Source of the DNA: Patescibacteria group bacterium
Lineage (GTDB): Bacteria > Patescibacteriota > Minisyncoccia > Phycocordibacterales > DATDWN01
Length of the DNA: 64,000 nt
NCBI GenBank assembly: GCA_040389125.1
Contig: JAZKAN010000001.1
Location: 47,398 to 111,397 of the forward strand
Reading direction: 5' to 3'
Below, in pieces: positions 15,887 to 44,764 of this stretch. Below the pieces are notes generated by a model that was given only the letters and a program-made list of their open reading frames with translations, had not been told where the DNA came from and did not search any database. The first letter of the stretch is position 1, and the number at the start of each line of letters is the position of its first letter. The position numbers and the translations under genes were made by a program.

Positions 15887-16618
15887 ATGGACAACCCACT
15901 CCTCGCTGTCAAAACACATATTTTTGAAGGGCCACTCGACACTCTCCTGTCACTTATTGAGAAACGAAAACTGTTTATAAACGACATATCACTTGCACAG
16001 GTAGCAGACGACTACATCGCGTATATCAAAAGTCTTGATGATTTTCCAATTAGCGATTCTGCACATTTTATTCTAATCGCCTCCACGCTCGTCCTGATTA
16101 AATCCAAATCTCTTCTTCCGACACTCTCACTGACAGAGGATGAGCAACACAGCATCGAGGATTTGGAGGCACGACTGGTAGAATATCAAAAATACAAAAC
16201 ACTCAGCGTGCATCTAAAAGAGCGATTTGGAATCACAACAGAATATCTCCGCCTACCATCACGAGAAAAAACGATCGTATTTACTCCTGACACGCAGACA
16301 ACTGTTTCCAAACTACACGAAACAATATTGTCGGTCATAACTCAAATTCCAAAAAAGGAATTTGTACCTACTGCAGTGGTCAAGAAAATAATATCGCTTG
16401 AGGAGACAATCGAAAACCTGACGAAACGTATCACAGCAGGACTCAAAATGAGTTTCAAGGACTTTGCTGGAATGGGCCGGGAGGACAAAGTAACCGTGAT
16501 TGTCAGTTTTCTGGCTATGCTTGAACTTGTAAAACAGGGTATTATACTAGTACGACAGGACAAGGATTTTCATGACATCGAAATGGAAACGCATGCAGTG
16601 GGAGTACCAAGATATTGA
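15887..16618 (+). CDS. scpA: Segregation and condensation protein A
   Basis: N-terminal FEGPLDTLLSLIEKRKLFINDISLAQVADDYIAYI is the ScpA signature region. The gene is followed by scpB. TATAAT (15874-15879) lies 7 nt before ATG 15887. Confidence 0.85.
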   Translation: MDNPLLAVKTHIFEGPLDTLLSLIEKRKLFINDISLAQVADDYIAYIKSLDDFPISDSAHFILIASTLVLIKSKSLLPTLSLTEDEQHSIEDLEARLVEYQKYKTLSVHLKERFGITTEYLRLPSREKTIVFTPDTQTTVSKLHETILSVITQIPKKEFVPTAVVKKIISLEETIENLTKRITAGLKMSFKDFAGMGREDKVTVIVSFLAMLELVKQGIILVRQDKDFHDIEMETHAVGVPRY

Positions 16619-30983: not shown

Positions 30984-31721
30984 CTACTGACAGTCTGCAA
31001 TGAGCTCGACAAGATCGCTGTGGATCAAGCCGTTGCTGATGATGTGACCTTCCACGACGTCCTCTCCTTTATACCTGAGAGGGAAGCCGTGAATGTCTGT
31101 CGCCGTACCACCCGCCTCTTCGACGATGACTTGCATTGCCGAGGTCTCCCATGGCTTCTGGCCAGGGAAAACTGTAGCATCGAACTCGCCCGAAGCGACC
31201 AGCCCACCAAAGTACGCGATGGAAAGCGGATTCATCCACTTTCCGCCGACATCCATCAGCTTCTGGGAGAATGTATGCAGGTTGTACGGAGCATTTCTCC
31301 ACCAGAGCAAACAGACGTTAGAACTTTTCAGGCTCGAGCGCTGGGATACCTTAACTGCGGTATCTCCGTAGCTTCGCCGGATGAAAGCTCCGCGACCAGT
31401 CTCTGCGTGCCACGTCCGTTTCTGAAACGGATCATGGATCAGTCCACTGATCGCACATCCATTCCAAACCACTGAGATACAGAATGCCGATATCGGCATT
31501 CCAAGCGAAAATGGAATGGTGCCATCGACTGGATCGCAGTAGATGGTGTACTCCGCTTCACGAATGTCACCACAGCCTTCTTCGCCGATTACGCAGATGT
31601 GAGGGAAATCGCGGCGAAGCGAATCGATCACGAGTTGGTTGATTGCCGTGTCAGCTTGGGTGAGCGGGGTGTCATCTTCCTTGAACTCCCGTGCCATACC
31701 TAACTGAAATTTGTCTGTCAT
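30984..31721 (-). CDS. Inositol monophosphatase-family protein, GC-rich xenolog
   Basis: GEE, CDPVDGT and WETSAMQVIVEEAGG motifs. GGAGA lies 5 nt before ATG 31721. This is the second IMPase-family gene in the window and has a very different composition from 21111-21893. Confidence 0.75.
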   Translation of the reverse strand: MTDKFQLGMAREFKEDDTPLTQADTAINQLVIDSLRRDFPHICVIGEEGCGDIREAEYTIYCDPVDGTIPFSLGMPISAFCISVVWNGCAISGLIHDPFQKRTWHAETGRGAFIRRSYGDTAVKVSQRSSLKSSNVCLLWWRNAPYNLHTFSQKLMDVGGKWMNPLSIAYFGGLVASGEFDATVFPGQKPWETSAMQVIVEEAGGTATDIHGFPLRYKGEDVVEGHIISNGLIHSDLVELIADCQ

Positions 31722-31828
31722 AATATCTCCGGCCTTTAATGCAAGACCAAAAAGATATTGGGAATTCGGAAAATGTCGTCTGTTCAAGGTGCTACCTCCT
31801 AAGCTTTTCTGTAATTACCATACATTAC

Positions 31829-31856
31829 TTGCATATATTTGTCAATGTGATATAAT
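31829..31856 (+). promoter_or_regulatory. Promoter TTGCAT-16-TGaTATAAT for the radical SAM gene
   Basis: TTGCAT at 31829-31834 and TATAAT at 31851-31856, followed by SD AAAGGAG (31874-31880) and TTG 31888. Confidence 0.55.
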
Positions 31857-31887
31857 GTATCCAGAAACTCTTGAAAGGAGTAGCACA

Positions 31888-34098
31888 TTGAAACACAACA
31901 AGTTTACGGTGTTTCTATCGATTGTCTGTATTCTAAGTCTCTGCAATGTAGAGGCAAAAAGTACAGTCACTGTCGACTGGGATCACCATTCTCGATACAC
32001 ACCAAGAGATGGCTACATTGAACACAAGCCAGCTCTTTACTGCTACCAAAGCGAAGCACGTCGTGGAGTAGCGACATACGCTGATGGTCACACCGAGGAA
32101 TATTTCGTTTGTGAAGAATATCACGAGATACCGGTCCACGGATCTCAAGTGTTCGATCAACCGCTTATTGTAATCGAACAACCGTTCGATACACACAATG
32201 AAAGTATTCCGCTTCAACCGAAGTCACACTTTATTGTGTCGCTTCGGAAAATCACAGCAACGAAACCGGAGCCTATGCTTGGCATGTTGCTTCTCGGTCA
32301 GCGTCGCAGAACGAGAGTGATCGTCGTCGAGCCGCCGGCATTCAACCCGGTTCACATTCCATCTGCTGTATCGCTGCTTTCAGCAGTTCTCGCAGAGGAC
32401 GGACACGATGTGGAACCGCAGTGGGGTCACATTCTTGGGCTGGAACATTTGTTCCTGTCTCAGGGTAACCAATCCGACAAGGAGCGGGTAAAGTGGGCAC
32501 TGCACATCGTCAGGTCAGCTGACGCCAGCGTCCACGATCAATACCTCGCGCGCAAAATCTTCGAGAAAACATCGGAGGCGATCGCGACCAAAGACAAGTT
32601 TCGCTACGAGCGGAACAACGTCATCTACGCATCGCAATACCAAGACGGCACCATCGCTGGTGTCCTTCGGGGGATTGCAGATCGCGAGAACCACTTGTGG
32701 TACTCGTACTTCTCTGAAGTGGAGGTGCCGCACGCGAAGTTGTTCTGGCCTCACATGTATTGCATTTCAGTCGGAGACGAACGGCAGCTTTTCCCGGGAA
32801 TGATCCTGGCCTCGATGGTCAAGGATGCGCTTCCGGGTTGCAAGGTAATCGTGGGCGGAAACTTCTTCGGAAGAATTCCTGACCCGCGAAAATATCCTGA
32901 CTTCGAAAAGCTGTTCGATCACGTCGACGGCATCTGCTACGCCGAAGGCTTTCAACCCATCGTTCAGATGGCACGGAGACTCGATGTCGCCACGACATCC
33001 GGGATGATTTGGAGAAAGGGTAGTGAAGTGGTTGTAAATCCACGGACTAACTATCCGACGAAATTCACGACACTTCCCACACCCGATATGTATGGCAGTG
33101 CGGCACCATGGTCACCTGACTGGACCCCATCACTGTATACAAAGTCACATTGCCCGCTCGCTTGCAATTTCTGTGCGATTGAAGCTCAATCGGACGACTT
33201 TGCAGCTGGCCGGCTTGATGACCGTCCGAAAATCGCACCTCGCTCAATGACACCAATGCAGATTGCTAAACAAATGCAATCAATGTGTGCTCACAAATTT
33301 GATATCGTGGATGCACTCATGTCGATTTCAGAACAACTGGAACTCGGCAAGGCGCTTCGCACAATCGGCTACGAGGCAACATGGCAATGCTATCTGACAG
33401 TGACAGACAATTGTCTGAAACCTCAGGTGGCACAATCGCTTTACGACGCAGGGTGTCGCTCAGTCCAACTTGGACTGGAGACGCTACGGCCGGAGACCTG
33501 TTTCCAAATCCAGAAGCAATGGAATCATCCTTCGGGATACCACAAAATACTGGAGAATTTCAGGAATGCAGGAATCCACACACACGTGTTTCTGATTATC
33601 GGTCTACCGACGGAACCTCTATCTGAGGGACTGCGGTGGGTTGGTTTTCTCGAAAGGTACGGTCGTAACATTCTGACGATCAAGTCAGGACGCTGGCGGC
33701 CCGCTCGGTATGCACCCGAGGTGGAGAAGGGTCTGCTCGATGCACATGTCGAGTTGTATCCCGACACCAAACCGTTCCAGACCAACCGCTCGTTCCGCTA
33801 TCGCGATCCGATTCACTCGAATCAGAAAGTGAATGCGATGCGCGACATTGTGGAACAGGCGTGTCGTCGCCACTGGGCGTACAACGTGACGTCCACCATT
33901 CCGTGGTGGATCAATCGCAGTCGCTACACGTGGGAGGAGCTCGAGGAGATGGCCAAGCAATTACAGCCAGAACCCGACATTCGAGACCTCGATGAACAGA
34001 TCACGCAGATGCGAACCCTTGTTCGAAAAGAGTTGGGAAGAGAAGTCAACTTCCAGACCTGGGACGAACTGGCAGCATTCGCAGTAACCTTGTTGTAA
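31888..34098 (+). CDS. Radical SAM protein with a B12-binding-like N-terminal domain and an unusual signal-anchor extension; GC-rich
   Basis: CX3CX2C cluster SHCPLACNFCAIE. An upstream Rossmann-like segment RVIVVEPPAFNPVHIPSAVSLLSAVLAEDGHDV and a SVQLGLETL block. I propose TTG 31888 as the start (SD 7 nt upstream), giving MKHNKFTVFLSIVCILSLCNVEA. The track ORF start at 31711 overlaps the divergent gene and lies upstream of the promoter. Confidence 0.75.
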   Translation: MKHNKFTVFLSIVCILSLCNVEAKSTVTVDWDHHSRYTPRDGYIEHKPALYCYQSEARRGVATYADGHTEEYFVCEEYHEIPVHGSQVFDQPLIVIEQPFDTHNESIPLQPKSHFIVSLRKITATKPEPMLGMLLLGQRRRTRVIVVEPPAFNPVHIPSAVSLLSAVLAEDGHDVEPQWGHILGLEHLFLSQGNQSDKERVKWALHIVRSADASVHDQYLARKIFEKTSEAIATKDKFRYERNNVIYASQYQDGTIAGVLRGIADRENHLWYSYFSEVEVPHAKLFWPHMYCISVGDERQLFPGMILASMVKDALPGCKVIVGGNFFGRIPDPRKYPDFEKLFDHVDGICYAEGFQPIVQMARRLDVATTSGMIWRKGSEVVVNPRTNYPTKFTTLPTPDMYGSAAPWSPDWTPSLYTKSHCPLACNFCAIEAQSDDFAAGRLDDRPKIAPRSMTPMQIAKQMQSMCAHKFDIVDALMSISEQLELGKALRTIGYEATWQCYLTVTDNCLKPQVAQSLYDAGCRSVQLGLETLRPETCFQIQKQWNHPSGYHKILENFRNAGIHTHVFLIIGLPTEPLSEGLRWVGFLERYGRNILTIKSGRWRPARYAPEVEKGLLDAHVELYPDTKPFQTNRSFRYRDPIHSNQKVNAMRDIVEQACRRHWAYNVTSTIPWWINRSRYTWEELEEMAKQLQPEPDIRDLDEQITQMRTLVRKELGREVNFQTWDELAAFAVTLL

Positions 34099-34173
34099 AA
34101 CTTCGAACATAACCGATTTGTTATGTAGGCCCGCCGTTTTGGTTGGGTCTTTTCTTTTATAAATTTTCTTAAT

Positions 34174-35190
34174 TTAATCCTTCAGGGGATGAAATTTCTT
34201 ATGTGTACTTTCTGCATATTTATCCGATGCATGCACATAACGAGTAGTGGTGTCGAGTGACTCGTGACCAAGGAGGATTTGGATGGCAGCTGGGTTTGCA
34301 CCAGACTCTGCCAGGTACGTTGCGAAACCGTGTCGTAAAGAGTGGGCACTTGTCGGAACATTCATATCGAGTAGCTCTCGATATTTTTTTATTTTCATTT
34401 GCAGGTAGTTCGGAGAAATATGTTTGGAAAGGTCAGCTGCATTTAACCCCCTATTCGGAATGAAGAGGTAAGGGGAGTCATCCGCACGTTTTGCCAGGTA
34501 TGCGTCAATATGCTTTTTGGCACGGTCAGTCAGGTAGATGAATCGCTGTTTACGACCCTTGCCTCGAATAAATATTTTGCCACTTTTATCCAGCTGAACT
34601 TTCTTTAGACTAATGAGTTCTGAAATACGCATTCCACTTGCAAACAAAGTTTCGAGCGCTGCACGGTTTCGAAGTGCAACGAGTGTATTTTTTTCAAATT
34701 TGGTTGGGGATTCAATGAGTCGAACCAGATCCTTGAATTCAGATATCTGCGGATGCTTTTTGTCACCTCGCAGGAGTTTGATTGATCCTGGAACAATCGG
34801 TGTTGAAATATCCATATCGATCAGAAATGACAAGTACCGCCTGAGTGATACTAGAATTCTATTTATTGAATCCGGTTGTAAATACATTTCCGACTGCTGA
34901 CCACACGCAGTTTTCCTGTCTGGTGAGTTCAGTTCTGCCTTGAACTGTTCTATCGTTTTTTTGGATGCCTCACTAAAGGGGATATGAAGTGCACTGTGCA
35001 AAAAGGTATCAAATGTCATCAGATCACGTTCATAGTTGTACAGAGTTTCAGGAGAATAATTATTGGCACGAATGTGTAGTAGAAAATCATCAATAGATGG
35101 AAGTATCCATGCATATTCTTTTCTTTCTTTTTTTACCCTGACCTTCTGTGGGGGAGGGAGCGGTTTTTCTTTTTCTATCTTTTTATTCAT
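34174..35190 (-). CDS. Tyrosine recombinase (XerC/XerD/integrase family)
   Basis: C-terminal catalytic region HSLRHGFATYLAESGANPAAIQILLGHESLDTTTRYVH (R..HxxR..Y) and an N-terminal SAM-like core-binding domain. Confidence 0.85.
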   Translation of the reverse strand: MNKKIEKEKPLPPPQKVRVKKERKEYAWILPSIDDFLLHIRANNYSPETLYNYERDLMTFDTFLHSALHIPFSEASKKTIEQFKAELNSPDRKTACGQQSEMYLQPDSINRILVSLRRYLSFLIDMDISTPIVPGSIKLLRGDKKHPQISEFKDLVRLIESPTKFEKNTLVALRNRAALETLFASGMRISELISLKKVQLDKSGKIFIRGKGRKQRFIYLTDRAKKHIDAYLAKRADDSPYLFIPNRGLNAADLSKHISPNYLQMKIKKYRELLDMNVPTSAHSLRHGFATYLAESGANPAAIQILLGHESLDTTTRYVHASDKYAESTHKKFHPLKD

Positions 35191-35224
35191 TTTTATAGTT
35201 TTAATGTGTAGGGAAGGGATAGTA

Positions 35225-35258
35225 GTAACTGAGTATAATATCTCTAATACTCAGTTAC
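35225..35258. repeat. Perfect 12-bp inverted repeat with a 10-nt spacer upstream of the recombinase gene
   Basis: GTAACTGAGTAT (35225-35236), AATATCTCTA, then ATACTCAGTTAC (35247-35258). Confidence 0.8.
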
Positions 35259-35368
35259 AGTATAGTATACAGGAGGATTTCTCACAAGAGTCCTATCCCC
35301 AACCATAATGCAAAAAAACGACTCCCAATGAATCCAGTGAATCGGTTTCTTTTGAGTTGTCTAGCTAC

Positions 35369-35776
35369 TTACTCTTCCTCGGTTACTCCACCATCAAATT
35401 CCTCGTCACTATCCATCGCAATCTCTTTTGTTTCGTGGATAGTACCATCCTCGTGATGTGCTGGAGAATAAATTGTATACATTCGCAGATTCTCTGAATC
35501 CGATGTATTGATTACATTATGCTCTGCACCAGCAGGAATGATGACCACATCACCGTCTGCTACATCGTATTCAGTGTCATTTACTATGACCTTGCCTTCC
35601 CCGCTTTCAAATCTAAAAAATTGATCGTTGTCTGGGTGAGTCTCGAGTCCAATTTCCTCATTGGGCTGTAGAGTCATGAGCACGAGTTGCATGTGTTCAC
35701 CTGTGTACAAAACGCGTCGAAAGTCCTCATTTTCAAGTGTCAAATCTTCTATATTTGCAAAATATCCTGTTTTCAT
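35369..35776 (-). CDS. Cupin-domain protein
   Basis: Cupin motifs GLETHPDNDQ and IIPAGAEHNVINT, with an acidic C-terminal tail. Confidence 0.75.
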   Translation of the reverse strand: MKTGYFANIEDLTLENEDFRRVLYTGEHMQLVLMTLQPNEEIGLETHPDNDQFFRFESGEGKVIVNDTEYDVADGDVVIIPAGAEHNVINTSDSENLRMYTIYSPAHHEDGTIHETKEIAMDSDEEFDGGVTEEE

Positions 35777-35930
35777 AAATTTTGTTTATTTAATGATAAA
35801 TTCTGTAATACATTTAAAGGCAGTATATCTACCTAACTTTTGTCTCATCATTATCCACTACTCAAATAAAGAGTATATGAATGCTATTTAGTTTCAACAT
35901 ATCGCAACTAATCTAATATAGTTTAATATA

Positions 35931-36221
35931 TTATTCTAAAATTTCAAAAACTTTCTGTTTTGATGTCTGTCCAGAAATAAGTGTCACACATGACGGTGCA
36001 ACTTTAAAATACGTTGCAAGTGCACGTACAATCGCATCATTTGCCTTGCCCTGCACCGGAGCTTCCTTAACCGATACTTTATATGTAATCATTTCTGTTT
36101 TTTTTCCAGTTTCCGATAGGGTAGTCTCCCCTCTCAAACTGTTAAAATCCATAGCTGGTTGACCTACTCTTTCTACCATTTCCCCTTTTGCACGTGTCTT
36201 TGCTTTAACAATAATTCTCAT
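35931..36221 (-). CDS. DUF167/YggU-family protein
   Basis: VSVKEAPVQGKANDAIVRALATYFKV...VTLISGQTSKQKVFEI is collinear with the remembered E. coli YggU core (APPVDGQAN ... G..R.K). Confidence 0.7.
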   Translation of the reverse strand: MRIIVKAKTRAKGEMVERVGQPAMDFNSLRGETTLSETGKKTEMITYKVSVKEAPVQGKANDAIVRALATYFKVAPSCVTLISGQTSKQKVFEILE

Positions 36222-36293
36222 ATATATATAAATTATACACCAAAAAACAGGAAGTGATTTCCTGTTTTCTTCTACGAATTATACCTACGCTTA

Positions 36294-36518
36294 TTACGCT
36301 GCTGGTCCGTCTGGAGCATTCCGTCCATCTGTAGCAACATAACTCACACAATCCCCTTGATTTTTGAATTTCCCATTGAAATCCATCCATCCACCCTTTT
36401 TACACTGATCCTTTGAGGTTGGATACTGTGGTCCTGGATTGATAACTGTTGCGGAAACTACCCCACTAAACATAAAAAGTGCACTGAGAACTACTGCTGA
36501 AAATACAAATTTATTCAT
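36294..36518 (-). CDS. Small secreted Cys-containing protein
   Basis: Signal peptide MNKFVFSAVVLSALFMFSGVVSA. The mature part has a CKKGGW...FKNQGDCVSYV motif. Confidence 0.5.
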   Translation of the reverse strand: MNKFVFSAVVLSALFMFSGVVSATVINPGPQYPTSKDQCKKGGWMDFNGKFKNQGDCVSYVATDGRNAPDGPAA

Positions 36519-36565
36519 GTGATAAAATAAATTAAATTTAATAATACATATAGTATATATCATTG

Positions 36566-37831
36566 CTACAAAAACAATAAATCTCTATCTAAATCATCTG
36601 CATCTGTTCCTATACTTTTACGTTTCAATGCATTGTGTGTTGTGCCAAGATGCACTATATGTCGGCCAAACTTTTTTTCGAGCAGATCAATTTGTTTGTG
36701 AATTGTTTCAAATGTATGTGTAATTTCTGTACCACCAAACAAATCAAGCTGTGATGCTCGCTCTGGTACAAGACCGTGTAGCCCTATGCCAGTTGTGCGA
36801 TACAGTACACCCGGCTTATACATTTTTTTAAAATTCCCATGAGCAAGCGAAATAGGAATTTCTGGTGCATTTGTCGGAGAATCCAGCCTGACTGAACAGC
36901 TTGCATATCGAAACTCTTTTGTCTTGAGAAAAAACGAAATTTCTCTGGGTACAAGTTTATAATGCCGTGCCTTGCTACACGCATCCTCGATATTTTTCGA
37001 CAGTTGCGACAGGAGAAATATTTTGTCGTTTGTTGCGGGATGAAATGACCTCGTTTTCTGAATTGACCCGTATTCTGTTTTTGGTTCTGGATTAACACAC
37101 ATGACACTGACAGATGATAGTTCGAACCAGATTACCTCGTATGGTTTTGACATATGACTAGTGACCCACTCGCGTCCCTTGTGTAGAAAATCAAGTGCAG
37201 TGTCGACACCCTGCATACGTAGAAAATCCCGAGTAGCCCCACCAATACCCCAGATTTTTCCAATAGGAATCTGTGAGAGAAATTTGGGTGCAGTATCCAG
37301 CTCAATCACAGTCAATCCATTTGGCTTGACCCACTTGGATGCGACTTTAGCGAGGCATTTTGTCGGTCCGAGACCAATAGAAACAGAGAGGTTCATTTCT
37401 GTATTTACCTCGTGTTTTATCCGCTCTGCGATCTGCCTGTACGACATGTATAGTGGCTTATCGAGACCAGTCAGGTCTGCAAAACATTCATCGATACTGT
37501 ACTCCTCGACATCGTCCGCATATCTCCGCACAATATCAAACATCATACTCGAGTAGTGTGCATATGATGCATAGTCACCGGGCAATACGAGTACCTGTGG
37601 AAATTCTTTTTTGACACGAAATATCGGCATTCCCCGCACAATCCCGAGTGCTTTTGCCTCGTACGAAAGTGCAGAAACAATCCCGCGTTCCTCACCAGTT
37701 ACGACCGGCAGTCCGCGTAGTTTCGGATTTTTAGCCACTTCCACACCCACGAAAAAGGCATCTCCATCCATATGGAATATGACTTTTTGCTTTCTCCCCT
37801 TCTTTTGCTCGTTCTGTTCTCTCTCCCCCAT
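36566..37831 (-). CDS. dinB: Y-family DNA polymerase (DinB/UmuC-like)
   Basis: IFHMDGDAFFVGVE and SIDECFADLTG catalytic motifs. TATAAT (37838-37843) lies 6 nt before ATG 37831, so I prefer this start over 37867. Confidence 0.83.
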   Translation of the reverse strand: MGEREQNEQKKGRKQKVIFHMDGDAFFVGVEVAKNPKLRGLPVVTGEERGIVSALSYEAKALGIVRGMPIFRVKKEFPQVLVLPGDYASYAHYSSMMFDIVRRYADDVEEYSIDECFADLTGLDKPLYMSYRQIAERIKHEVNTEMNLSVSIGLGPTKCLAKVASKWVKPNGLTVIELDTAPKFLSQIPIGKIWGIGGATRDFLRMQGVDTALDFLHKGREWVTSHMSKPYEVIWFELSSVSVMCVNPEPKTEYGSIQKTRSFHPATNDKIFLLSQLSKNIEDACSKARHYKLVPREISFFLKTKEFRYASCSVRLDSPTNAPEIPISLAHGNFKKMYKPGVLYRTTGIGLHGLVPERASQLDLFGGTEITHTFETIHKQIDLLEKKFGRHIVHLGTTHNALKRKSIGTDADDLDRDLLFL

Positions 37832-37900
37832 TCCCCTATTATAGGTGAACATCCGTTCACCACGCAAGTGGATAAGAAAGTACTGAGCAGAGTGTTGTTC

Positions 37901-38194
37901 CTACCAAACTTTATAAAATTCTCGACTTCCCGCAGTATACATTTCGTGCATGTCCGCAAACGCTTCATTCATCTTTTTCATCTCTGGAGTCGGATTCGCC
38001 CATTTTTCAAACTGTTTTTCGTACTCAGTCAGATTTTCAAATTGACTTACCATAATCACCCGGTGATACTGGCCAGTCATATCTGTTAAAATGTTTACTG
38101 TTTCTGGAAACGTTCCCATATGTTCTTTGCACAACTTTGCTATTTTTGATGCATTCCCCGGCTTACAAATAAACGTGTCATGTACTTGAATCAT
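37901..38194 (-). CDS. Hypothetical protein (possibly a small alpha+beta barrel fold)
   Basis: A 97-aa ORF directly upstream of dinB with no motif recognised. Confidence 0.45.
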   Translation of the reverse strand: MIQVHDTFICKPGNASKIAKLCKEHMGTFPETVNILTDMTGQYHRVIMVSQFENLTEYEKQFEKWANPTPEMKKMNEAFADMHEMYTAGSREFYKVW

Positions 38195-38350
38195 ATTTTT
38201 ATTTATTTAAATTTTAATAGATTGTATTATCTCATATTTTTCCTCAAAATTCGATGAGGAAGTTAAAATTTATTTAGGATTTCACCTTTATTGACAAATA
38301 ATATATAGTATGTATTATATTACTTAGATTAAGTATGAAGGAGAACAGTA

Positions 38351-38998
38351 ATGGCAGAAAACGAGAAACAAAAACTGCCTTTTTCCATTCAGGAAAAGGA
38401 TGTTGCGGCTTGGACGGGGTGCTGGAACGCAAATCGAAAGATAATGATCAGTGGTGAATTAAACTATGAATCACTGAGAAAAGTGTCTCTCGAACTCATG
38501 AAATTGGACTATATCAATAATGAGCCGATCACTCTCATGATTGATAGTGGTGGAGGAAATGTTGTGGCGACACACCAACTCGAGGACATAATCTCGATGA
38601 TCAACTCCCCAGTGGACGGACTAATCATGGGCGATAGCGCATCCATGGCCATTGACCTCTTGCAGATGTGTAGGTATCGCAGGATTCTACCCTCTGCACG
38701 AATCCTGGTCCATTATATTAGAGTCGACCAGCGATGGGTATGTGATGATCTTGAACGGCTCGAAATTGACGTGGAATATTTTCTGAGTCGACAACGAGAG
38801 GCTGGTAATCGCAGGCTTGCACTCTATGTAAAACGGACTGGGTATCCGGAGGAAAGAATCAAAGAGCTCTTTCGACACGGCGAAGTTCATCGATCGTATT
38901 TTTCGGCACAGCAGGCACTCGAGCTAAAGCTAGTTGATGAGATCGCAGTTGGCTTTAAATTCTTTCCTCCCCGATCCTCCTCGGCAGAAGAAAAATAG
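38351..38998 (+). CDS. Divergent orphan ClpP/S14-family protease-like protein
   Basis: Collinear with ClpP: MIDSGGG (INSPGG), IMGDSASMAIDLL (catalytic Ser block GQAASMG), RILVHYI (His block VMIHQP), and YFSAQQALELKLVDEI (FLSAPEAVEYGLVDSI). The aligned catalytic Asp position reads R. SD AAGGAG lies 7 nt before the ATG and TTGACA sits at 38291. Confidence 0.65.
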   Translation: MAENEKQKLPFSIQEKDVAAWTGCWNANRKIMISGELNYESLRKVSLELMKLDYINNEPITLMIDSGGGNVVATHQLEDIISMINSPVDGLIMGDSASMAIDLLQMCRYRRILPSARILVHYIRVDQRWVCDDLERLEIDVEYFLSRQREAGNRRLALYVKRTGYPEERIKELFRHGEVHRSYFSAQQALELKLVDEIAVGFKFFPPRSSSAEEK

Positions 38999-39084
38999 AA
39001 TATTCCCTTATCTTGCCACAAGGCGCTCTGCATGGGGCGCCTTTTTGCTACATAAATAATTACCACCAAATTTCGATGAAGAAA

Positions 39085-39633
39085 CTAGAGTTTGATTGTG
39101 AGATTTGGCCATTTTTCTAACCACTTTTTCTTTTGTATTCTGGTTTTTATTCTTTCTATTCCATCCATATATTTTGGACTAGGTCGGACAATGAAACTAA
39201 CAATATCATCAATCCCATACGGAGCAATGAGTTTTAAAACACCATTTTCAATTCTTACTCCAACAGCGGTAACTGTCTCTGGCCAGGCCGCTATCACATC
39301 ATATGCAGAAACGTAGATTGATCGTGTATCAGATTTATAATTATACGCATTATTTCGCAACTCCCAATCCAAACCTGTTTCAGCATGTAGTGTCTGCATT
39401 AACTGTTCATCACGTTCCTGATCATTTTCAATAGTTGGATCAAAATACACTAAATCTATATCTGTTGCATCAAGATATTCTGTTTTTCGTCCAGACATAT
39501 GATTCCACACTTTATTTCTCACAAATCCCGCACCAATAAGCCAATCAGACAAGTTTAATTTCTCTGCACGTTTCAAAACGTCCATCATCCATTTGTCATT
39601 TTCTATAAGTTCAAGAATTTCTTTTTCTGTCAT
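39085..39633 (-). CDS. Pol-beta-superfamily nucleotidyltransferase-fold protein (NTP_transf_6-like by recollection)
   Basis: IGAGFVRN (hG[GS]) followed by DIDLVYFD (DxD). TATAAT (39640-39645) lies 6 nt before ATG 39633. Confidence 0.6.
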   Translation of the reverse strand: MTEKEILELIENDKWMMDVLKRAEKLNLSDWLIGAGFVRNKVWNHMSGRKTEYLDATDIDLVYFDPTIENDQERDEQLMQTLHAETGLDWELRNNAYNYKSDTRSIYVSAYDVIAAWPETVTAVGVRIENGVLKLIAPYGIDDIVSFIVRPSPKYMDGIERIKTRIQKKKWLEKWPNLTIKL

Positions 39634-39650
39634 AAGGCGATTATATTAAA

Positions 39651-40136
39651 CTAAAGCATCTTAACTATCCTAAATCCCTCATAACTTTTGTCTCCAGTAA
39701 CGTCGGTGAGTCTATATGGAAATGTATTTGGATTAAACAAATTTCTCTCTTCCGAATTTTCAGAATCTACTTCGAGTATACGAATTTTTTCACTAGCAAA
39801 TTCATCATATTTTAAAGAAAATGAAATACTATTTTGTATAAAATTAAATTCATGTCGTTTCTTTTCCAGATGTAGGATTGAAGTATCTAATAGATTTTTG
39901 TATTCATCTTCGCTGATCTTCTTTTTATCTGAAATTCTATTACCATTAGTTATTATTTTTGATACAAAGAAAATCTGAGTCTCTCCAGTCTCAAATGTTT
40001 TAAATACCACCTTCTTTTCTTTATCCTCTGCTGTTTCAATCCAATCAATAATTAGGTTAAAAGAGATTGAATTATTCTGAATCAAGAATTTTTGATCAAT
40101 TTTTTCAACTATGAATTTTCGAGCATTATCATCCAT
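39651..40136 (-). CDS. Divergent CYTH (triphosphate tunnel) domain protein
   Basis: Collinear with the remembered CYTH/TTM pattern: ARKFIV (EIERKFLV), LEKKRHEF (VEKTRY), IRILEVDSENSEE (LVEVEFLSEDAA), and LTDVTGDKSYEGFRI (VTEDKRYKNKAL). Canonical ExExK reads DNARK, so activity is uncertain. Confidence 0.5.
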   Translation of the reverse strand: MDDNARKFIVEKIDQKFLIQNNSISFNLIIDWIETAEDKEKKVVFKTFETGETQIFFVSKIITNGNRISDKKKISEDEYKNLLDTSILHLEKKRHEFNFIQNSISFSLKYDEFASEKIRILEVDSENSEERNLFNPNTFPYRLTDVTGDKSYEGFRIVKML

Positions 40137-40195
40137 TGATTACTGTATTTACTTTACATTAACATGTCAATTTTAGTGTGAACATCAGCAGAATT

Positions 40196-40417
40196 TTATT
40201 TTATCTTTTCTACTATATATTTAATGACATCTTTTAGCTGACCATACAGATCAACTACTGCTGATTTGAGAGTTCCCAGAAACTTTTGCATTTCCGGAGA
40301 TTTGAAAAATGCGAGGATATCAAAATTGTATTTGTAATGGAGAAAAATAAGAGCAATTATTACAATGATAATGAGGGAAATAAAACCTTGTTGATTGTCA
40401 GTATTTTTGTTTTTCAT
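40196..40417 (-). CDS. Small single-pass membrane protein
   Basis: A 73-aa ORF with one TM (FISLIIIVIIALIFL), upstream of and codirectional with the CYTH gene. Confidence 0.4.
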   Translation of the reverse strand: MKNKNTDNQQGFISLIIIVIIALIFLHYKYNFDILAFFKSPEMQKFLGTLKSAVVDLYGQLKDVIKYIVEKIK

Positions 40418-40522
40418 TGAATTATAATTTGGTTTGAATCATATAAATGGTACCACAGGCACTACTAATACAAAAGCGATTGTTTGATTATGGCTCACAT
40501 GATAAAATACATGTTATAAAAC

Positions 40523-41518
40523 ATGCCTAAAAACGCTATCAAAAAATTGAAATTTATGGACTTTTGTGCCGGTATCGGAGCTGGCCGTCTTGGTCTTGAA
40601 AAAAATGGCTTAAAATGTGTTGGTTTTTCTGAAATTGATCCTGAAGCTGAAAAAACTTATAGACTTTTCTTCGGAGAAAGTGAAAAAAATTATGGTGATC
40701 TGACTAAAATTGATCCTAAATCACTCCCCGATTTTGACATGATGATTGCAGGTTTCCCTTGCCAATCTTTTTCTATTATTGGAGAAAGAAAAGGTATGGA
40801 CGATGAACGAGGGCAAATTATTTTTAGTCTCATTAATATAATGCTAGCTAAAAATGTAAAATACTTTATTCTTGAAAATGTAAAAGGACTTACAAACCAT
40901 GAAGGCGGAAATACTCTTAGGGTTATTTTAGATCAACTGGATAAAGCCGGTTATCAAGTTGAGTATGATGTTTTGAATAGCCTCAATTATGGTGTTCCTC
41001 AAATGAGAGAGAGAATTTATTTTGTTGGAGTAAGAAAAGACCTTGTAGACAAAGATTTTTACTATCAATTTCCAGAGTCTCAATCAAGAGTAAGTGTTAC
41101 TGATTACTTGATTGATGATAGTGAACTTGAACTCAATGAGAGACATGATACCTACGAGACTTTTTTAAAGTATCTACAGAATAAATATAATCGTGGAGAA
41201 TATTCTGTCGATCAGTTATTGGAAAAAAATTATAACGTTATAGATACAAGACAATCAGATATAAGAATATACGACAACAAAGTCCCTACCCTACGAACAG
41301 GTAGGCACGGAATTTTATATGTAAAAGATAACAAATTTAGGAAGCTATCTGGTTTTGAATCTCTGTTACTACAAGGTTTTCCAAAAGAAATCGCTACAAA
41401 GGCTAAGAATAAAATTGAAGAGTTGCATTTGTTAAAACAAACTGGAAATGCTATGACTGTGAGTGTAATTGAGGCGGTAGGTAGACAACTATTCAATAAT
41501 TTACAAACTTCTGCATGA
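40523..41518 (+). CDS. DNA (cytosine-5)-methyltransferase
   Basis: Motif I FCAGIGAGRLG, motif IV GFPCQSFS, motif VI ENVKGL, motif VIII QMRERIYFVG, and motif X QTGNAMTV. Confidence 0.92.
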   Translation: MPKNAIKKLKFMDFCAGIGAGRLGLEKNGLKCVGFSEIDPEAEKTYRLFFGESEKNYGDLTKIDPKSLPDFDMMIAGFPCQSFSIIGERKGMDDERGQIIFSLINIMLAKNVKYFILENVKGLTNHEGGNTLRVILDQLDKAGYQVEYDVLNSLNYGVPQMRERIYFVGVRKDLVDKDFYYQFPESQSRVSVTDYLIDDSELELNERHDTYETFLKYLQNKYNRGEYSVDQLLEKNYNVIDTRQSDIRIYDNKVPTLRTGRHGILYVKDNKFRKLSGFESLLLQGFPKEIATKAKNKIEELHLLKQTGNAMTVSVIEAVGRQLFNNLQTSA

Positions 41519-42294
41519 AAATAAACAAAAAGACTGTTTTGGAAGCCATAGCCCGAGGATCAAAAACTGCAAAAGCAGGTTTTAGTAATGAGCAAGATGT
41601 TATAAACATCTTTAATAATTGGAAAACTGATAAGGTCGCTAAAGAATGGTTGGGTGCGATGAATTACAATGTATCTGATATTGAATTTGTAAAAGCAACT
41701 AAAGTTAGAGGTCATTATAAAGCAGATATTCAAGTGAGAATAATGATTATTATTAAGTTGAAATCTCAAGAGGATGTCCAGAACTTACAAGTAAAACTAG
41801 TGAGTAATCCTCAAGGTTTTAATCAAATTGATAAAAGATGGGTAGATAAGTATGTGGAACTTTGGAATATTCCCTCTGATCTGACTGCCATACTAAAACT
41901 TTTTACTGGAGAAACCATACCAACACAAAGTAATTTAGAAGACCCTCGCAGAATGTTTTTATTTGAGATGAGCCAATCTGACCAAGATAAACTGATACAA
42001 TTCTTTACTAAAAATAAAATCCTAATTGTTTCAGATTTATTGAAAGGTAGAGGTGAATTTTCTGCCGACTGGACACTTGTTATTCTAAAGGTTGGTGCGG
42101 AAGAAAGCCGTTGGATGTTAAAGTCAATCAATGAAGTCATGAATGTCTTTGGTAAGGGCGAAGTGAGAATTACTAATCAAGGTGGTCTAAAAATCGGCAA
42201 GATTGGTATGCAAAGAAAGGGTGGAGATGGTGGTAGAAAGACTGCAAGTATGTTGCAATTCAAAATTAATCCTGTTGAACTTTTTACAGAGTAA
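41515..42294 (+). CDS. Type II restriction endonuclease, HinP1I/MspI-like
   Basis: ATGA overlap with the methyltransferase gene. The blocks QVKLVSNPQGFNQIDKRW and QRKGGDGGRKTASMLQFKINPVELF match my recollection of R.HinP1I/R.MspI. Specificity is not determinable here. Confidence 0.6.
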   Translation: MKINKKTVLEAIARGSKTAKAGFSNEQDVINIFNNWKTDKVAKEWLGAMNYNVSDIEFVKATKVRGHYKADIQVRIMIIIKLKSQEDVQNLQVKLVSNPQGFNQIDKRWVDKYVELWNIPSDLTAILKLFTGETIPTQSNLEDPRRMFLFEMSQSDQDKLIQFFTKNKILIVSDLLKGRGEFSADWTLVILKVGAEESRWMLKSINEVMNVFGKGEVRITNQGGLKIGKIGMQRKGGDGGRKTASMLQFKINPVELFTE

Positions 42295-42334: not shown

Positions 42335-42916
42335 ATGTCATCGCTCTATTCTCAACCAAATCAACCTGAAAAAAGAAAAGTTTTTATTAGTTTTCACCAT
42401 GCAGATGAATGGTATCGTAACGAATTTATTCGACGATGGGGAGATCAATTTATCGGTACAGACGTTAAACTTGGAGATATAGATACTGAAAACAGCGATG
42501 ATTACACCAAACGATTGATACAAGTTGACCACATTGTTAATTCAAGTGTGGTTGTTGCTATTTATGGAACTCACACAAGAAAACGTAAACATGTAGACTG
42601 GGAAATATCTGCAGGTTTAAATGAAAAAGTGGGCGGTCATAAGGGATTAGTAGTCTTAATTGTTCCCGGTTTCCCCGGCCACCCTTTTGACCAAAATGGT
42701 GTTTATGATAAAGCTCTTTTGTATCCACATCTTCACCCTAGAACAGCAGAAAATGTGAAAACGGAGTATGCAGATGTTTATTTTTGGCCGGATATGTACA
42801 CTAATCTAAATCCTGTTGAAGTCAAAGACCTTGTAGAACTTGCCTCAAAAAAGCGAGAGAGTCACAGTCATTTGATAGAGAATTCTCATCCTCAATATGT
42901 CAATAACTTGCCATGA
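42335..42916 (+). CDS. ThsB-like TIR domain protein (DUF1863/TIR-like)
   Basis: RKVFISFHHADE (ThsB KRVFFSFHYQD), TKRLIQ...SSVVVAIYGTHT (LKRLI...TSVTCVLIGSQT), and HVDWEISAGL (WVRYEIMKSI, which contains the conserved Glu). Confidence 0.7.
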   Translation: MSSLYSQPNQPEKRKVFISFHHADEWYRNEFIRRWGDQFIGTDVKLGDIDTENSDDYTKRLIQVDHIVNSSVVVAIYGTHTRKRKHVDWEISAGLNEKVGGHKGLVVLIVPGFPGHPFDQNGVYDKALLYPHLHPRTAENVKTEYADVYFWPDMYTNLNPVEVKDLVELASKKRESHSHLIENSHPQYVNNLP

Positions 42917-43602
42917 CAGCCACAAGCTCACTCGCAACTTTATTTTCTTTATCTCTTAATCGGGATTTATCTCTTGCAATAATACTCAACCCTATAGCAA
43001 TTCTAATCGTAGTTTTAATATGCGTAATTTTTTTCACAATACGCTGGTACTTTTGGAGAGGCAATAATTTTGTAATAGATACCGCAGAAATGGGTATCGG
43101 CTCACATAAAATTTCTTTTAAACCAAACATAAGAGACCAAGAAATAGCATATAAAATATGGGTTGAGTTAAGCACAAGAAAAATCGGACTACCCATTGAT
43201 TTAGAACACGATGTTATATCAGAAATTTACGACTCATGGTTCAACTTCTTTTCCATTACAAGGGAATTAATTAAAGACATACCCGTAAACAAAGTAAAAA
43301 ACCAAAGCACAAGAAAAATAATAACTCTATCTATAAGCGTATTGAACGAGGGACTTCGACCACACCTAACAACATGGCAAGCACGCTTTCGTCGGTGGTA
43401 TGATAGACAACTTGCAAATGCAACAGATGACGCTGACCCACAAGCAATTCAAGAAAAATACCCTAAATTTAGCGAACTAAAAACAGATTTAATTGCTGTT
43501 AATAAAAGGCTAATTAAGTATAGGGAGAAAATGCGGGAAGTTGTTTTAGGTATTCCCGAGGTTGAAAATAAAGTCCCCCCTCTCTCTGAACCCGTTTTGT
43601 AG
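42913..43602 (+). CDS. Uncharacterised single-pass membrane protein coupled to the TIR gene
   Basis: The start ATG overlaps the TIR stop (ATGA). One TM (LAIILNPIAILIVVLICVIFFTI) is followed by about 170 aa of helical-looking sequence with no motif I recognise. Confidence 0.6.
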   Translation: MTATSSLATLFSLSLNRDLSLAIILNPIAILIVVLICVIFFTIRWYFWRGNNFVIDTAEMGIGSHKISFKPNIRDQEIAYKIWVELSTRKIGLPIDLEHDVISEIYDSWFNFFSITRELIKDIPVNKVKNQSTRKIITLSISVLNEGLRPHLTTWQARFRRWYDRQLANATDDADPQAIQEKYPKFSELKTDLIAVNKRLIKYREKMREVVLGIPEVENKVPPLSEPVL

Positions 43603-43672: not shown

Positions 43673-44764
43673 TTAGAGCCCTTCTTTTTTCAGCATCTCA
43701 ACTGCCTTTTTAGCATCCTTTGAAAGTTTTTTTGGAATGAGAATGTGGAGTTTGATCAGGAGGTCACCGCGTTTGTTTTTGTCATACGGCACACCCTTGC
43801 CTTTGATACGCAGAATCTCCCCTATTGCGACTCCCTCGGGAATTTTGACTTTGATCTCGCCGTCGAGAGTGGTCACCGGCTGGTCTGCGCCGAGAAGTGC
43901 GTCGGAAAGTTTGACGTTTAAATCCATGACCAGATTGCTACCATCCTTTTTAAAGAGCGGATGTTTCTTGACGTAAATTTTGATATACAGATCGCCAGAC
44001 TGTCCGCCGGACATTGCTTCGCCACCACCGGTCAGTCGGATCATTTCACCATTGTCGATACCAGCTGGAATTTGGACTTTGATTTCGCTTTCTTTTTTGT
44101 ATACACCTGCACCGTGACATGTGTGGCATTTTACTTTTGGAATTTTGCCGGTGCCATGACAGTGTTCACATGTTGCTGTGGTTTCAAACTGTCCAAAAAA
44201 TGTTTTCTTGACTTCACGAATCTGTCCACGACCGTTACAAATTTCACACGTCATCATCTCACTACCTTTTTCGCCTCCTGTTCCACCACACGTATCACAT
44301 TTTGAAATTTTATTCAGAAGTATTGTACGCTCAACACCGAAAATAGATTCCTCGAACGACAGCTCGATATCAATCGAAATATCACGTCCACGTTTTGCCT
44401 GTGTGCGACGTCCACCACCGAACACATCACCAAAGATGTCACCGAGGTCAAACTCCATGCCGTTCCCACTGCCACCCTGTGTAAACTGAGAAAAGTCGAA
44501 ATCCCCGAACCCGCCGAAACCACCTCCCTGGGCTCCAGAAGCCCCGCCGCTACCCGTAAATGCCCTGCCATACGTATCATACTCCGCACGTTTTTTGTCG
44601 TCAGAGAGCACAGAATACGCCTCATTTATTTCCTTGAATTTCGCATCATCACCGCCCTTTTTGTCAGGATGGTATTTGTGCGCGAGGGTACGAAAGGCCT
44701 TTTTTATCTCCTCCTTACTCGCCTTTTTATCTACGCCCAATGATTCATAATAGTCTTTTGCCAT
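43673..44764 (-). CDS. dnaJ: Chaperone DnaJ
   Basis: J domain with HPD (KYHPDKK), a G/F region, and four CxxCxGxG zinc motifs. TATAAT (44772-44777) lies 7 nt before ATG 44764. Confidence 0.93.

Follow-up and report, generated by a model that had tools for sequence, protein, structure and literature searches.

A divergent CYTH-like protein and a PF06042 nucleotidyltransferase, probably separate accessory genes, in a variable slot of a Patescibacteria genome

Introduction

Among described systems, CBASS and MNT-HEPN/AbiE come close to an arrangement in which a nucleotidyltransferase (NTase) is encoded near a small membrane protein and defence genes, and a literature search found no described system that joins an NTase with a CYTH protein. 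Here we analyse a 64,000-nucleotide stretch of DNA from a Patescibacteria group bacterium (assembly GCA_040389125.1, contig JAZKAN010000001.1, positions 47,398 to 111,397; hereafter the window), in which both proteins are encoded side by side. Three minus-strand open reading frames (ORFs), confirmed from the sequence and the ORF coordinates, code for a stand-alone 182-amino-acid (aa) NTase matching PF06042 (NTP_transf_6; 39085-39633), a divergent 161-aa CYTH-like protein with a predicted triphosphate-tunnel fold (39651-40136) and a lineage-specific 73-aa single-transmembrane protein (40196-40417); the window proteins are deposited as V4473_00450 and V4473_00455. The trio shares with CBASS and MNT-HEPN/AbiE only a Pol-beta-superfamily NTase near a small membrane protein and defence genes, and it has neither the HEPN or effector partner nor the conserved pairing of those systems. 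A preliminary description of this DNA had proposed that the trio forms a nucleotide-signal or nucleotide-modification module; we consider it probable that these are separate accessory genes lying side by side in a low-GC variable slot of a genome that is probably Saccharibacteria-related, with no dedicated multi-gene system.

The CYTH/triphosphate-tunnel (TTM) enzymes with which the 161-aa protein can be compared include triphosphatases of the NeuTTM (NE1496; Protein Data Bank (PDB) entries 2fbl and 3typ) and CthTTM type. In SaTTM, the ExExK and ExE motifs coordinate two metals, the first Glu of strand 8 serving metal 1 and the second Glu metal 2, and the second Glu of ExExK helps to coordinate the metals together with E5 and E137 (PMC8233210). 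Class IV adenylate cyclases carry ExA on strand 8 and are still active, and AtTTM1/2 are without ExExK or ExE and nonetheless have pyrophosphatase activity (PMC8233210).

The family of the 182-aa protein, PF06042 (formerly DUF925; COG3575), entered the NTase-fold classification of 2009 as group XX, without an assigned function (PMC2794190), and it was still termed function-unknown in the 2024 SPLASH preprint (10.1101/2024.01.18.576133). Our literature search found no function for the family and no member with a described activity. Its single solved structure is 2la3 from Streptococcus pneumoniae, entitled 'CCA-adding enzyme head domain'.

Results

The three genes are not found together in other loci

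We fetched 7 loci around close homologues of the CYTH-like protein and 38 more CYTH-like loci from metagenomes, together with 4 loci around the closest NTase homologues (75-76% identical) and 80 NTase loci from GTDB species genomes, the last set being drawn from at least 437 PF06042 loci in those genomes. The linkage counts given here cover presence within the fetched loci, that is, adjacency rather than genome-wide co-occurrence. PF06042 was present in none of the 43 other CYTH-like loci, of which 31 had upstream and 33 had downstream flanks longer than 700 bp, and the CYTH-like family of the window was present in none of the 80 non-redundant NTase loci (1021 neighbour genes). A Pfam scan of the 56 immediate CYTH-like neighbours did not find PF06042, and the commonest families in it, NUDIX and Glyoxalase, occurred three times each; BLAST clustering of neighbours detected nothing common to more than 3 of 43 CYTH-like or more than 5 of 83 NTase loci. 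Fusions of the NTase with a CYTH domain were found neither among the 120 listed NTase homologues nor among 125 CYTH-like matches; where CYTH-like fusions were tested by Pfam, the partner was NUDIX or DUF1801.

The 73-aa protein has a lone hydrophobic segment (residues 10-28; Kyte-Doolittle 19-residue maximum 2.38), in keeping with its earlier description as a single-transmembrane protein. None of the first 129 fetched loci contained a homologue, and exactly one was found in a database of 5.8 billion sequences: P0262 (70% identity), whose gene overlaps another membrane-protein gene in a non-defence context, in the syntenic locus L130. The 73-aa gene is a conserved backbone gene unrelated to the CYTH-like gene and the NTase gene, and it belongs to the conserved flank rather than to the variable cargo. 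Conserved co-localisation had been set in advance as a check on the proposed module, and the trio was not found together in other genomes; with 0/43 and 0/80 loci co-localised and the 73-aa homologue lying beside other genes, the module is not borne out.

The NTase and CYTH-like genes occupy a variable slot

Locus L130 (GCA_040384245.1) is syntenic with the window by tblastn and blastn. The conserved backbone common to both covers window positions 34084-38213 and 40199-40417 at 70-89% protein identity and includes a tyrosine recombinase (89%), a cupin (78%), a PF02594-family protein (74%), DNA polymerase IV (72%), a small ORF, a 97-aa gene (37901-38194; 89%) and the 73-aa gene (70%). The 97-aa and 73-aa genes flank a variable cargo slot (38214-40198), which holds a ClpP-like gene, the NTase gene and the CYTH-like gene in the window; in L130, a 162-aa gene, an 85-aa gene and a GNAT acetyltransferase gene stand there instead. 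Past the 73-aa gene the two loci diverge again, and the whole block of restriction-modification (R-M) and TIR genes is absent from L130.

A hot spot lies upstream of the 97-aa gene, and its cargo differs among the window, L130 and two further loci, L008 and L007. The 97-aa gene lies 5 kb downstream of the NTase gene in L008, where the CYTH-like gene is absent, and 2 kb downstream of the CYTH-like gene in L007, where the NTase is absent. The locus thus occurs with the NTase only (L008), the CYTH-like gene only (L007), neither (L130) or both (window), and the two genes therefore assort independently. GC content is 29-34% across 39.0-42.5 kb, compared with a window mean of 40%. Among the slot genes it is 28.2% for the CYTH-like gene (the lowest in the window), 35.3% for the NTase gene and 46% for the ClpP-like gene, the gene median being 40.9%, and this heterogeneity suggests separate origins.

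The NTase family also travels alone in other settings. PF06042 occurs on 69 plasmid records from many phyla, and no common partner of it was found in the six plasmid contexts examined. Gene cassettes of integron arrays are usually single-gene. One of the six contexts, from Vibrio, is integron-cassette-array-like, and NTP_transf_6 is among the domains recurrent in assembled Vibrio integron arrays (SPLASH preprint, 10.1101/2024.01.18.576133). The family behaves as a single-gene cassette in these plasmids and Vibrio arrays, and its occurrence in single-gene Vibrio cassettes therefore fits an NTase acting by itself.

Some details of these contexts can be added. In the array-like locus, L134 on Vibrio parahaemolyticus plasmid NZ_CP010886.1, the PF06042 gene lies amid GNAT genes, toxin-antitoxin pairs and DUF3265, and one Vibrio alginolyticus plasmid record contains four PF06042 copies. 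The PF06042 gene of Planococcus has an overlap with a gene of the GrpB family, to which two of the NTase neighbours in Patescibacteria also belong.

The 161-aa protein belongs to a divergent CYTH subfamily

The 161-aa gene is genuine, as it has many conserved homologues and its product gives a confident AlphaFold2 (AF2) model (pLDDT 90.9, pTM 0.84). The protein begins with MDDNARKF, and an in-frame TAA seven codons upstream makes a longer N-terminus impossible. Neither the protein nor its 14 close homologues match any model in Pfam, NCBIfam or PADLOC. The AF2 model is strand-dominated, and the first 22 matches that Foldseek returned for it from the PDB are all CYTH/TTM structures, led by NeuTTM (2fbl/3typ; E 3.5e-6, TM-score 0.65-0.74) and followed by AtTTM3, SaTTM and CyaB/class IV adenylate cyclases.

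The family profile was searched exhaustively against 1.84 billion representatives, among which the family comprises 95 clusters at 50% identity (E<=1e-10). The distant tail of this search consists of proteins that score above the PF01928 gathering score (for example P0235, with 29.5 bits, P0243, P0249 and P0248). A reverse search with a hidden Markov model (HMM) of four canonical CYTH proteins matches every family member at E 1e-7 to 1e-17, with the exception of one fragmentary ORF at 7e-6, and hhalign aligns the family with canonical CYTH at 98.4% probability (E 8.5e-15, 151 columns). A mixed profile of family, bridging and canonical CYTH sequences matches NeuTTM over its full length (E 9e-15). 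The link to NeuTTM surfaced only once bridging and canonical CYTH sequences had joined the profile; phmmer with the 161-aa protein and hmmsearch with the family alone returned no CYTH protein from the PDB sequences, their matches to uL13 and SAC3 being spurious.

The prediction of a CYTH/triphosphate-tunnel fold stands because the AF2/Foldseek fold, the transitive profile links and the mixed-profile match to NeuTTM all point to it, and the collinearity with CYTH/TTM enzymes that the preliminary description had noticed is thereby supported. Of the profile matches anticipated there, PF06042 was recovered for the 182-aa protein, and a direct PF01928 match for the 161-aa protein was not. All named sources of the CYTH-like family are metagenome-assembled genomes of Patescibacteria, the rest being metagenome assemblies, and the 161-aa protein defines a small divergent CYTH subfamily that is missed by Pfam, NCBIfam and PADLOC.

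A few relatives carry additional domains. The CYTH-like domain has an N-terminal NUDIX fusion in P0136 (332 aa) and is fused to DUF1801 in P0147 (304 aa), both of which may be read-through of assembly or gene calling, and in L005 and L006 the CYTH-like gene is followed directly by a NUDIX gene. The NUDIX fusion and neighbours hint at a nucleotide house-cleaning theme for the family. Two proteins encoded in NTase loci (L008:2126-3265, minus strand; L046:10618-11766, plus strand) combine an N-terminal AAA_28 P-loop kinase-like domain with a C-terminal domain that Pfam missed and that canonical-CYTH HMMs recognise (E 5e-35 and 5e-29). P0240, P0247 and P0250 have the same AAA_28 architecture, their C-terminal domain being matched solely by the CYTH-like family profile. 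These AAA_28-CYTH proteins span about 365-382 aa, and their architecture recalls the plant uridine-kinase-CYTH proteins TTM1/2.

The metal site of the CYTH-like protein appears remodelled

In the alignment, D3-N4-A5-R6-K7 of the 161-aa protein falls on E-I-E-R-K of canonical CYTH proteins and NeuTTM. None of the 15 family members deviates at D3, A5 or K7, and what had been described as an ExExK signature degraded to DNARK is a motif fixed as D-x-A-x-K. On strand 8, I-L-E122-V-D124 aligns with L-V-E-V-E, the first Glu being kept and the second replaced by an invariant Asp with a shorter side chain. Eight basic residues (K7, K42, K46, K60, R67, K92, R94 and K109) are invariant in the family, of which K7, K60, R67, K92 and R94 align with Lys or Arg of NeuTTM and canonical CYTH, and the motif D111-E112-F113 is invariant as well. 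Judged by this alignment, the charged residues of the tunnel appear to be retained, as had been asked of a genuine CYTH tunnel.

Compared with the NeuTTM/CthTTM-type triphosphatases, the 161-aa protein is predicted to have the same eight-stranded tunnel fold, and its alignment with NeuTTM is collinear from end to end. Retained in it are R-K in strand 1, K-x-R in the strand that reads LEKKRHEF, a Lys at the position of the MTLKSEGG lysine of NeuTTM, D-E-F, the leading Glu of the strand-8 motif and, at the C-terminus, the plug motif EVTGDxxY. It differs from NeuTTM in having D-N-A-R-K for ExExK, E-V-D for ExE and an invariant Trp where the LRQGYL segment of NeuTTM has Tyr, and it falls below the Pfam PF01928 threshold. 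AtTTM1/2 and the class IV cyclases are precedents for a working CYTH fold with an altered metal site. Relative to them, the 161-aa protein loses the second Glu of strand 1 and keeps the second acid of strand 8 as Asp, while the HF motif of the class IV cyclases and the kinase fusion of AtTTM1/2 are both missing from it. As far as sequence allows this to be read, the phosphate-binding tunnel is kept and the metal site is remodelled, with Asp, Ala, Glu and Asp in place of four Glu, which leaves three carboxylates. The invariance of the replacement residues argues for a putative metal site that is changed and functional, not decayed.

The 182-aa protein is a typical PF06042 nucleotidyltransferase

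The 182-aa gene is likewise genuine, since it has many conserved homologues and a confident AF2 model (pLDDT 94.1). Its product matches PF06042 at E 9.6e-44 and 149.5 bits (cut-off 25) over positions 2-159 of the 159-position model and finds 2la3 by phmmer at E 3.2e-31. Foldseek also places 2la3 first (E 2.5e-16, TM-score 0.83/0.79), followed by the heads of class II CCA-adding and A-adding enzymes (query-normalised TM-score about 0.5-0.59). It is a full-length, typical member of the family represented by 2la3. The two NTase hallmarks that the preliminary description had pointed out, hG[GS] and DxD, are intact in the motifs G34-A-G36-F-V-R-N (IGAGFVRN) and D58-I-D60 (DIDLVYFD), and G34, G36, D58 and D60 are invariant across 35 homologues. 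Judged by these motifs, the protein is a catalytically intact PF06042 NTase.

With class II CCA-adding enzymes, A-adding enzymes and poly(A) polymerases, the 182-aa protein has in common the head fold and motif A, GxGxVR(D/N)...DxD. The neck, body and tail domains of those enzymes are missing from it, and the target-normalised TM-scores of its model with CCA- and A-adding enzymes are 0.2-0.3. In class II CCA-adding enzymes, these domains bind tRNA and select nucleotides; because they are missing here, a role at the tRNA 3' end is not to be assumed. The NTase would be expected to transfer a nucleoside monophosphate from a nucleoside triphosphate onto a hydroxyl of some acceptor, and it may well work alone. 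Readings of the protein as a CD-NTase of CBASS or as the MNT part of an MNT-HEPN/AbiE system were tried and rejected, since for both the protein is of the wrong NTase subfamily and has neither a partner nor a conserved pairing.

Promoter-like signals and spacing of the trio

The gaps within the trio are 59 nt (73-aa gene to CYTH-like gene) and 17 nt (CYTH-like gene to NTase gene). These are not unusual, because the median over the 49 co-directional gaps in the window is 42 nt, and 16 of those gaps measure at most 20 nt; the genes are close, as had been remarked, and their spacing is ordinary for the host genome rather than anything special.

TATAAT lies at 39645-39640 on the minus strand, inside the 17-nt gap and 6 nt before the NTase ATG at 39633, exactly as had been described, and it probably serves as the -10 box for a transcript with little or no leader. 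A second TATAAT (40421-40426, minus strand) lies 3 nt before the ATG of the 73-aa gene. Upstream of the CYTH-like gene, TTGACA-17 nt-TACAGT (40142-40170, minus strand) agrees with the consensus at 10 of 12 positions and ends 5 nt before the ATG; the total number of TTGACA/TACAGT-type sites in the region is not above chance, and this promoter is suggestive at most. Across the window, 14 of 66 exact TATAAT sites (21%) sit 3-10 nt before the ATG start of an ORF that is 60 aa or longer, compared with 69 of 1508 (4.6%) for control hexamers permuted from the same letters. The TATAAT of the NTase gene is probably a real -10 box because of this 4.6-fold enrichment before the ATGs of long ORFs. DnaJ (gap 7) and polymerase IV, at its start supported by homology (gap 6), are further cases.

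Leaderless-type promoter architecture seems to be common in the host genome. Sites of this type precede, among others, the ATGs at 15887(+), 27834(+), 36221(-), 37831(-), 39633(-), 40417(-), 44764(-), 48664(-), 50500(-) and 62518(+), and several TATAAT sites in the window carry the TG of an extended -10 box. The ATG at 37831 is internal to the longest ORF of polymerase IV and is the start supported by homology, and that at 44764 is internal to the longest ORF of DnaJ. A separate -10 box of leaderless type seems to precede each of the three genes, which may therefore be transcribed independently; such boxes would argue for independence of the three genes. No terminator lies between them, and read-through is possible.

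Other CYTH genes near PF06042

A Pfam scan of 131 immediate neighbours of the NTase genes found NUDIX 7 times and canonical CYTH twice. In total, CYTH genes make up 7 of the 1021 neighbour genes in the NTase loci and 3 of the 154 directly adjacent genes. In L088 the order is NUDIX, CYTH, NTase with a 9-nt gap (PF01928, 85 bits); in L086 the CYTH and NTase ORFs overlap as called (PF01928, 48.5 bits); and in L068 a TTM-type CYTH gene lies directly downstream of the NTase gene (hhalign, 99.9%). L030 has the order NTase, adenosine deaminase, CYTH, and in L046 a CYTH gene is three genes away; the AAA_28-CYTH fusions of L008 and L046 lie further from the NTase. The CYTH genes adjacent to or near the NTase span at least two subfamilies other than that of the window. 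Custom HMMs and hhalign with a TTM-type profile missed the CyaB-like CYTH neighbours of the NTase, which were found by the Pfam scan of candidate neighbours, and a regular-expression search for ExExK among NTase neighbours was uninformative.

Neighbouring genes

The R-M and TIR genes that had been placed beside the trio are present, on the opposite strand. A C5 DNA methyltransferase gene (40523-41518, plus strand) adjoins the trio and overlaps the gene for an R.HinP1I-family endonuclease (41515-42294, plus strand; PF11463, E 2.6e-85). Downstream of this HinP1I-type pair follow a gene for a ThsB-like TIR protein (42335-42916, plus strand) and, with a 4-nt overlap, a gene for a 229-aa protein with one N-terminal transmembrane segment and no family match (42913-43602, plus strand). 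The TIR gene and the gene for the 229-aa membrane protein (42335-43602) could be a two-gene defence unit; no ThsA match was found among the window proteins scanned.

The third gene of the slot encodes a stand-alone ClpP-fold protease (38351-38998, plus strand; PF00574, E 1.9e-17), which also matches phrog_94, a phage head-maturation protease (E 5e-14). On the plus strand, a T-run preceded by a GC-rich hairpin (about 39021-39042) is terminator-like for this gene. A scan of the window for tRNAs and Rfam families found none, hence no tRNA-linked island boundary. Elsewhere, positions 31000-34500 are compositionally distinct from the rest of the window (GC 49-53%, mean 40%), and a 795-aa protein encoded there has a CxxxCxxC motif, which suggests a radical-SAM enzyme.

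Discussion

That the trio consists of separate accessory genes, brought side by side in a variable slot, is in our judgement probable, and several observations weigh against it. Many of the sampled contigs are short, and the 17-nt gap without a terminator permits co-transcription of the CYTH-like and NTase genes. CYTH genes are adjacent to and co-directional with the NTase gene in 3 of 80 loci (L086, L088 and L068) and lie within three genes of it in L030 and L046. With 0.19-0.58 adjacent cases expected under a naive genome-wide rate of 1-3 CYTH genes per 800 genes, the adjacency has P = 0.001-0.02, and such a pattern can indicate a functional link with non-orthologous replacement. The adjacency favours a loose two-enzyme pair, in which a PF06042 NTase and a CYTH phosphohydrolase would act on a common substrate or pathway with interchangeable CYTH subfamilies, the window being one instance that uses the D-x-A-x-K subfamily; for example, the tunnel enzyme would trim or bind a triphosphate end or remove triphosphate (PPPi) or pyrophosphate (PPi), and the NTase would add a nucleotide. 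Neighbourhoods rich in nucleotide metabolism (NUDIX 7/131, adenosine deaminase, NADAR, PRTase and AAA_28-CYTH kinases) agree with this. However, a CYTH gene adjoins the NTase gene in fewer than 4% of NTase loci, and the NTase is absent from all 43 loci of the window's CYTH-like family. The tests internal to the data are not significant (Fisher, adjacent against the rest, p = 0.07; within-locus permutation, p = 0.10), and the NTases of L086 and L088 are closest to each other among the four compared (56% identity) and may represent one event. Moreover, no NTase-CYTH fusion occurs among the homologues listed, and PF06042 is solitary in plasmids and integron cassettes. NUDIX is at least as frequent as CYTH among the immediate neighbours of the NTase, which accords with our reading of these neighbourhoods: small accessory genes for nucleotide handling cluster in Patescibacteria in general. 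We hold a loose pair to be unlikely. More doubtful still is the stronger form, in which PF06042 and CYTH would be a recurrent, loosely linked Patescibacteria unit whose shared substrate would carry a triphosphate, for instance an RNA end or some unusual nucleotide.

The surroundings of the trio, a variable stretch of low GC with a HinP1I-type R-M pair and a ThsB-like TIR gene alongside, together with a weak match of the 73-aa protein to the PADLOC 2TM effector model (E 0.004, 14.7 bits), could suggest an anti-phage or abortive-infection system in which the NTase signals or modifies a target, the CYTH-like protein senses or degrades a triphosphate and the 73-aa protein is the effector. But the three genes are never together elsewhere among the loci examined, the sole 73-aa homologue lies in a non-defence context, and the R-M and TIR genes are on the opposite strand and also absent from L130. 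The NTase is of the CCA-adding enzyme/poly(A) polymerase head type, not a relative of the CD-NTase or MNT fold, and PADLOC gives it just AbiEii at E 0.024, with no model for the CYTH-like protein; neither this nor the 2TM match is significant, and no other PADLOC match of the trio is. tblastn of both enzymes against phage genomes returned no match and a PHROGs search with them nothing relevant. The earlier idea of a module embedded in a defence neighbourhood thus finds no significant match in any of these sources and no conserved linkage, and we regard such a system as highly improbable.

On our reading, the CYTH-like protein would still bind a triphosphate- or polyphosphate-type ligand; most likely it would act in nucleotide or polyphosphate house-cleaning and hydrolyse this ligand, its use of metal being altered. 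The hydrolytic step is where a non-catalytic, ligand-binding pseudoenzyme has to be weighed. Ala5 stands for the second Glu of ExExK in 15/15 members, a Glu that helps to hold the metals in SaTTM (PMC8233210), and two further Glu are shortened to Asp. D3, E122, D124 and all the basic tunnel residues are nevertheless invariant, which points to a preserved metal and phosphate site, and the pyrophosphatase activity of AtTTM1/2 without ExExK and the working class IV cyclases with ExA (PMC8233210) also speak against loss of catalysis. Given this balance a pseudoenzyme seems to us somewhat unlikely. On the side of a pseudoenzyme, mutagenesis of Cet1 and CthTTM by the Shuman laboratory reportedly found the Glu residues of this site intolerant of Ala.

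The newness of the locus is limited to the divergent CYTH subfamily; there is no new system, and the absence of a new signalling or defence module removes a false lead. The weak recurrence of CYTH beside PF06042 is a cheaply testable hypothesis for the PF06042 family, and a PF06042-CYTH unit, if true, would be the first functional handle on an NTase family with a solved structure and no assigned function. The D-x-A-x-K subfamily, for its part, offers a test set by nature of the extent to which tunnel enzymes depend on a complete two-metal site.

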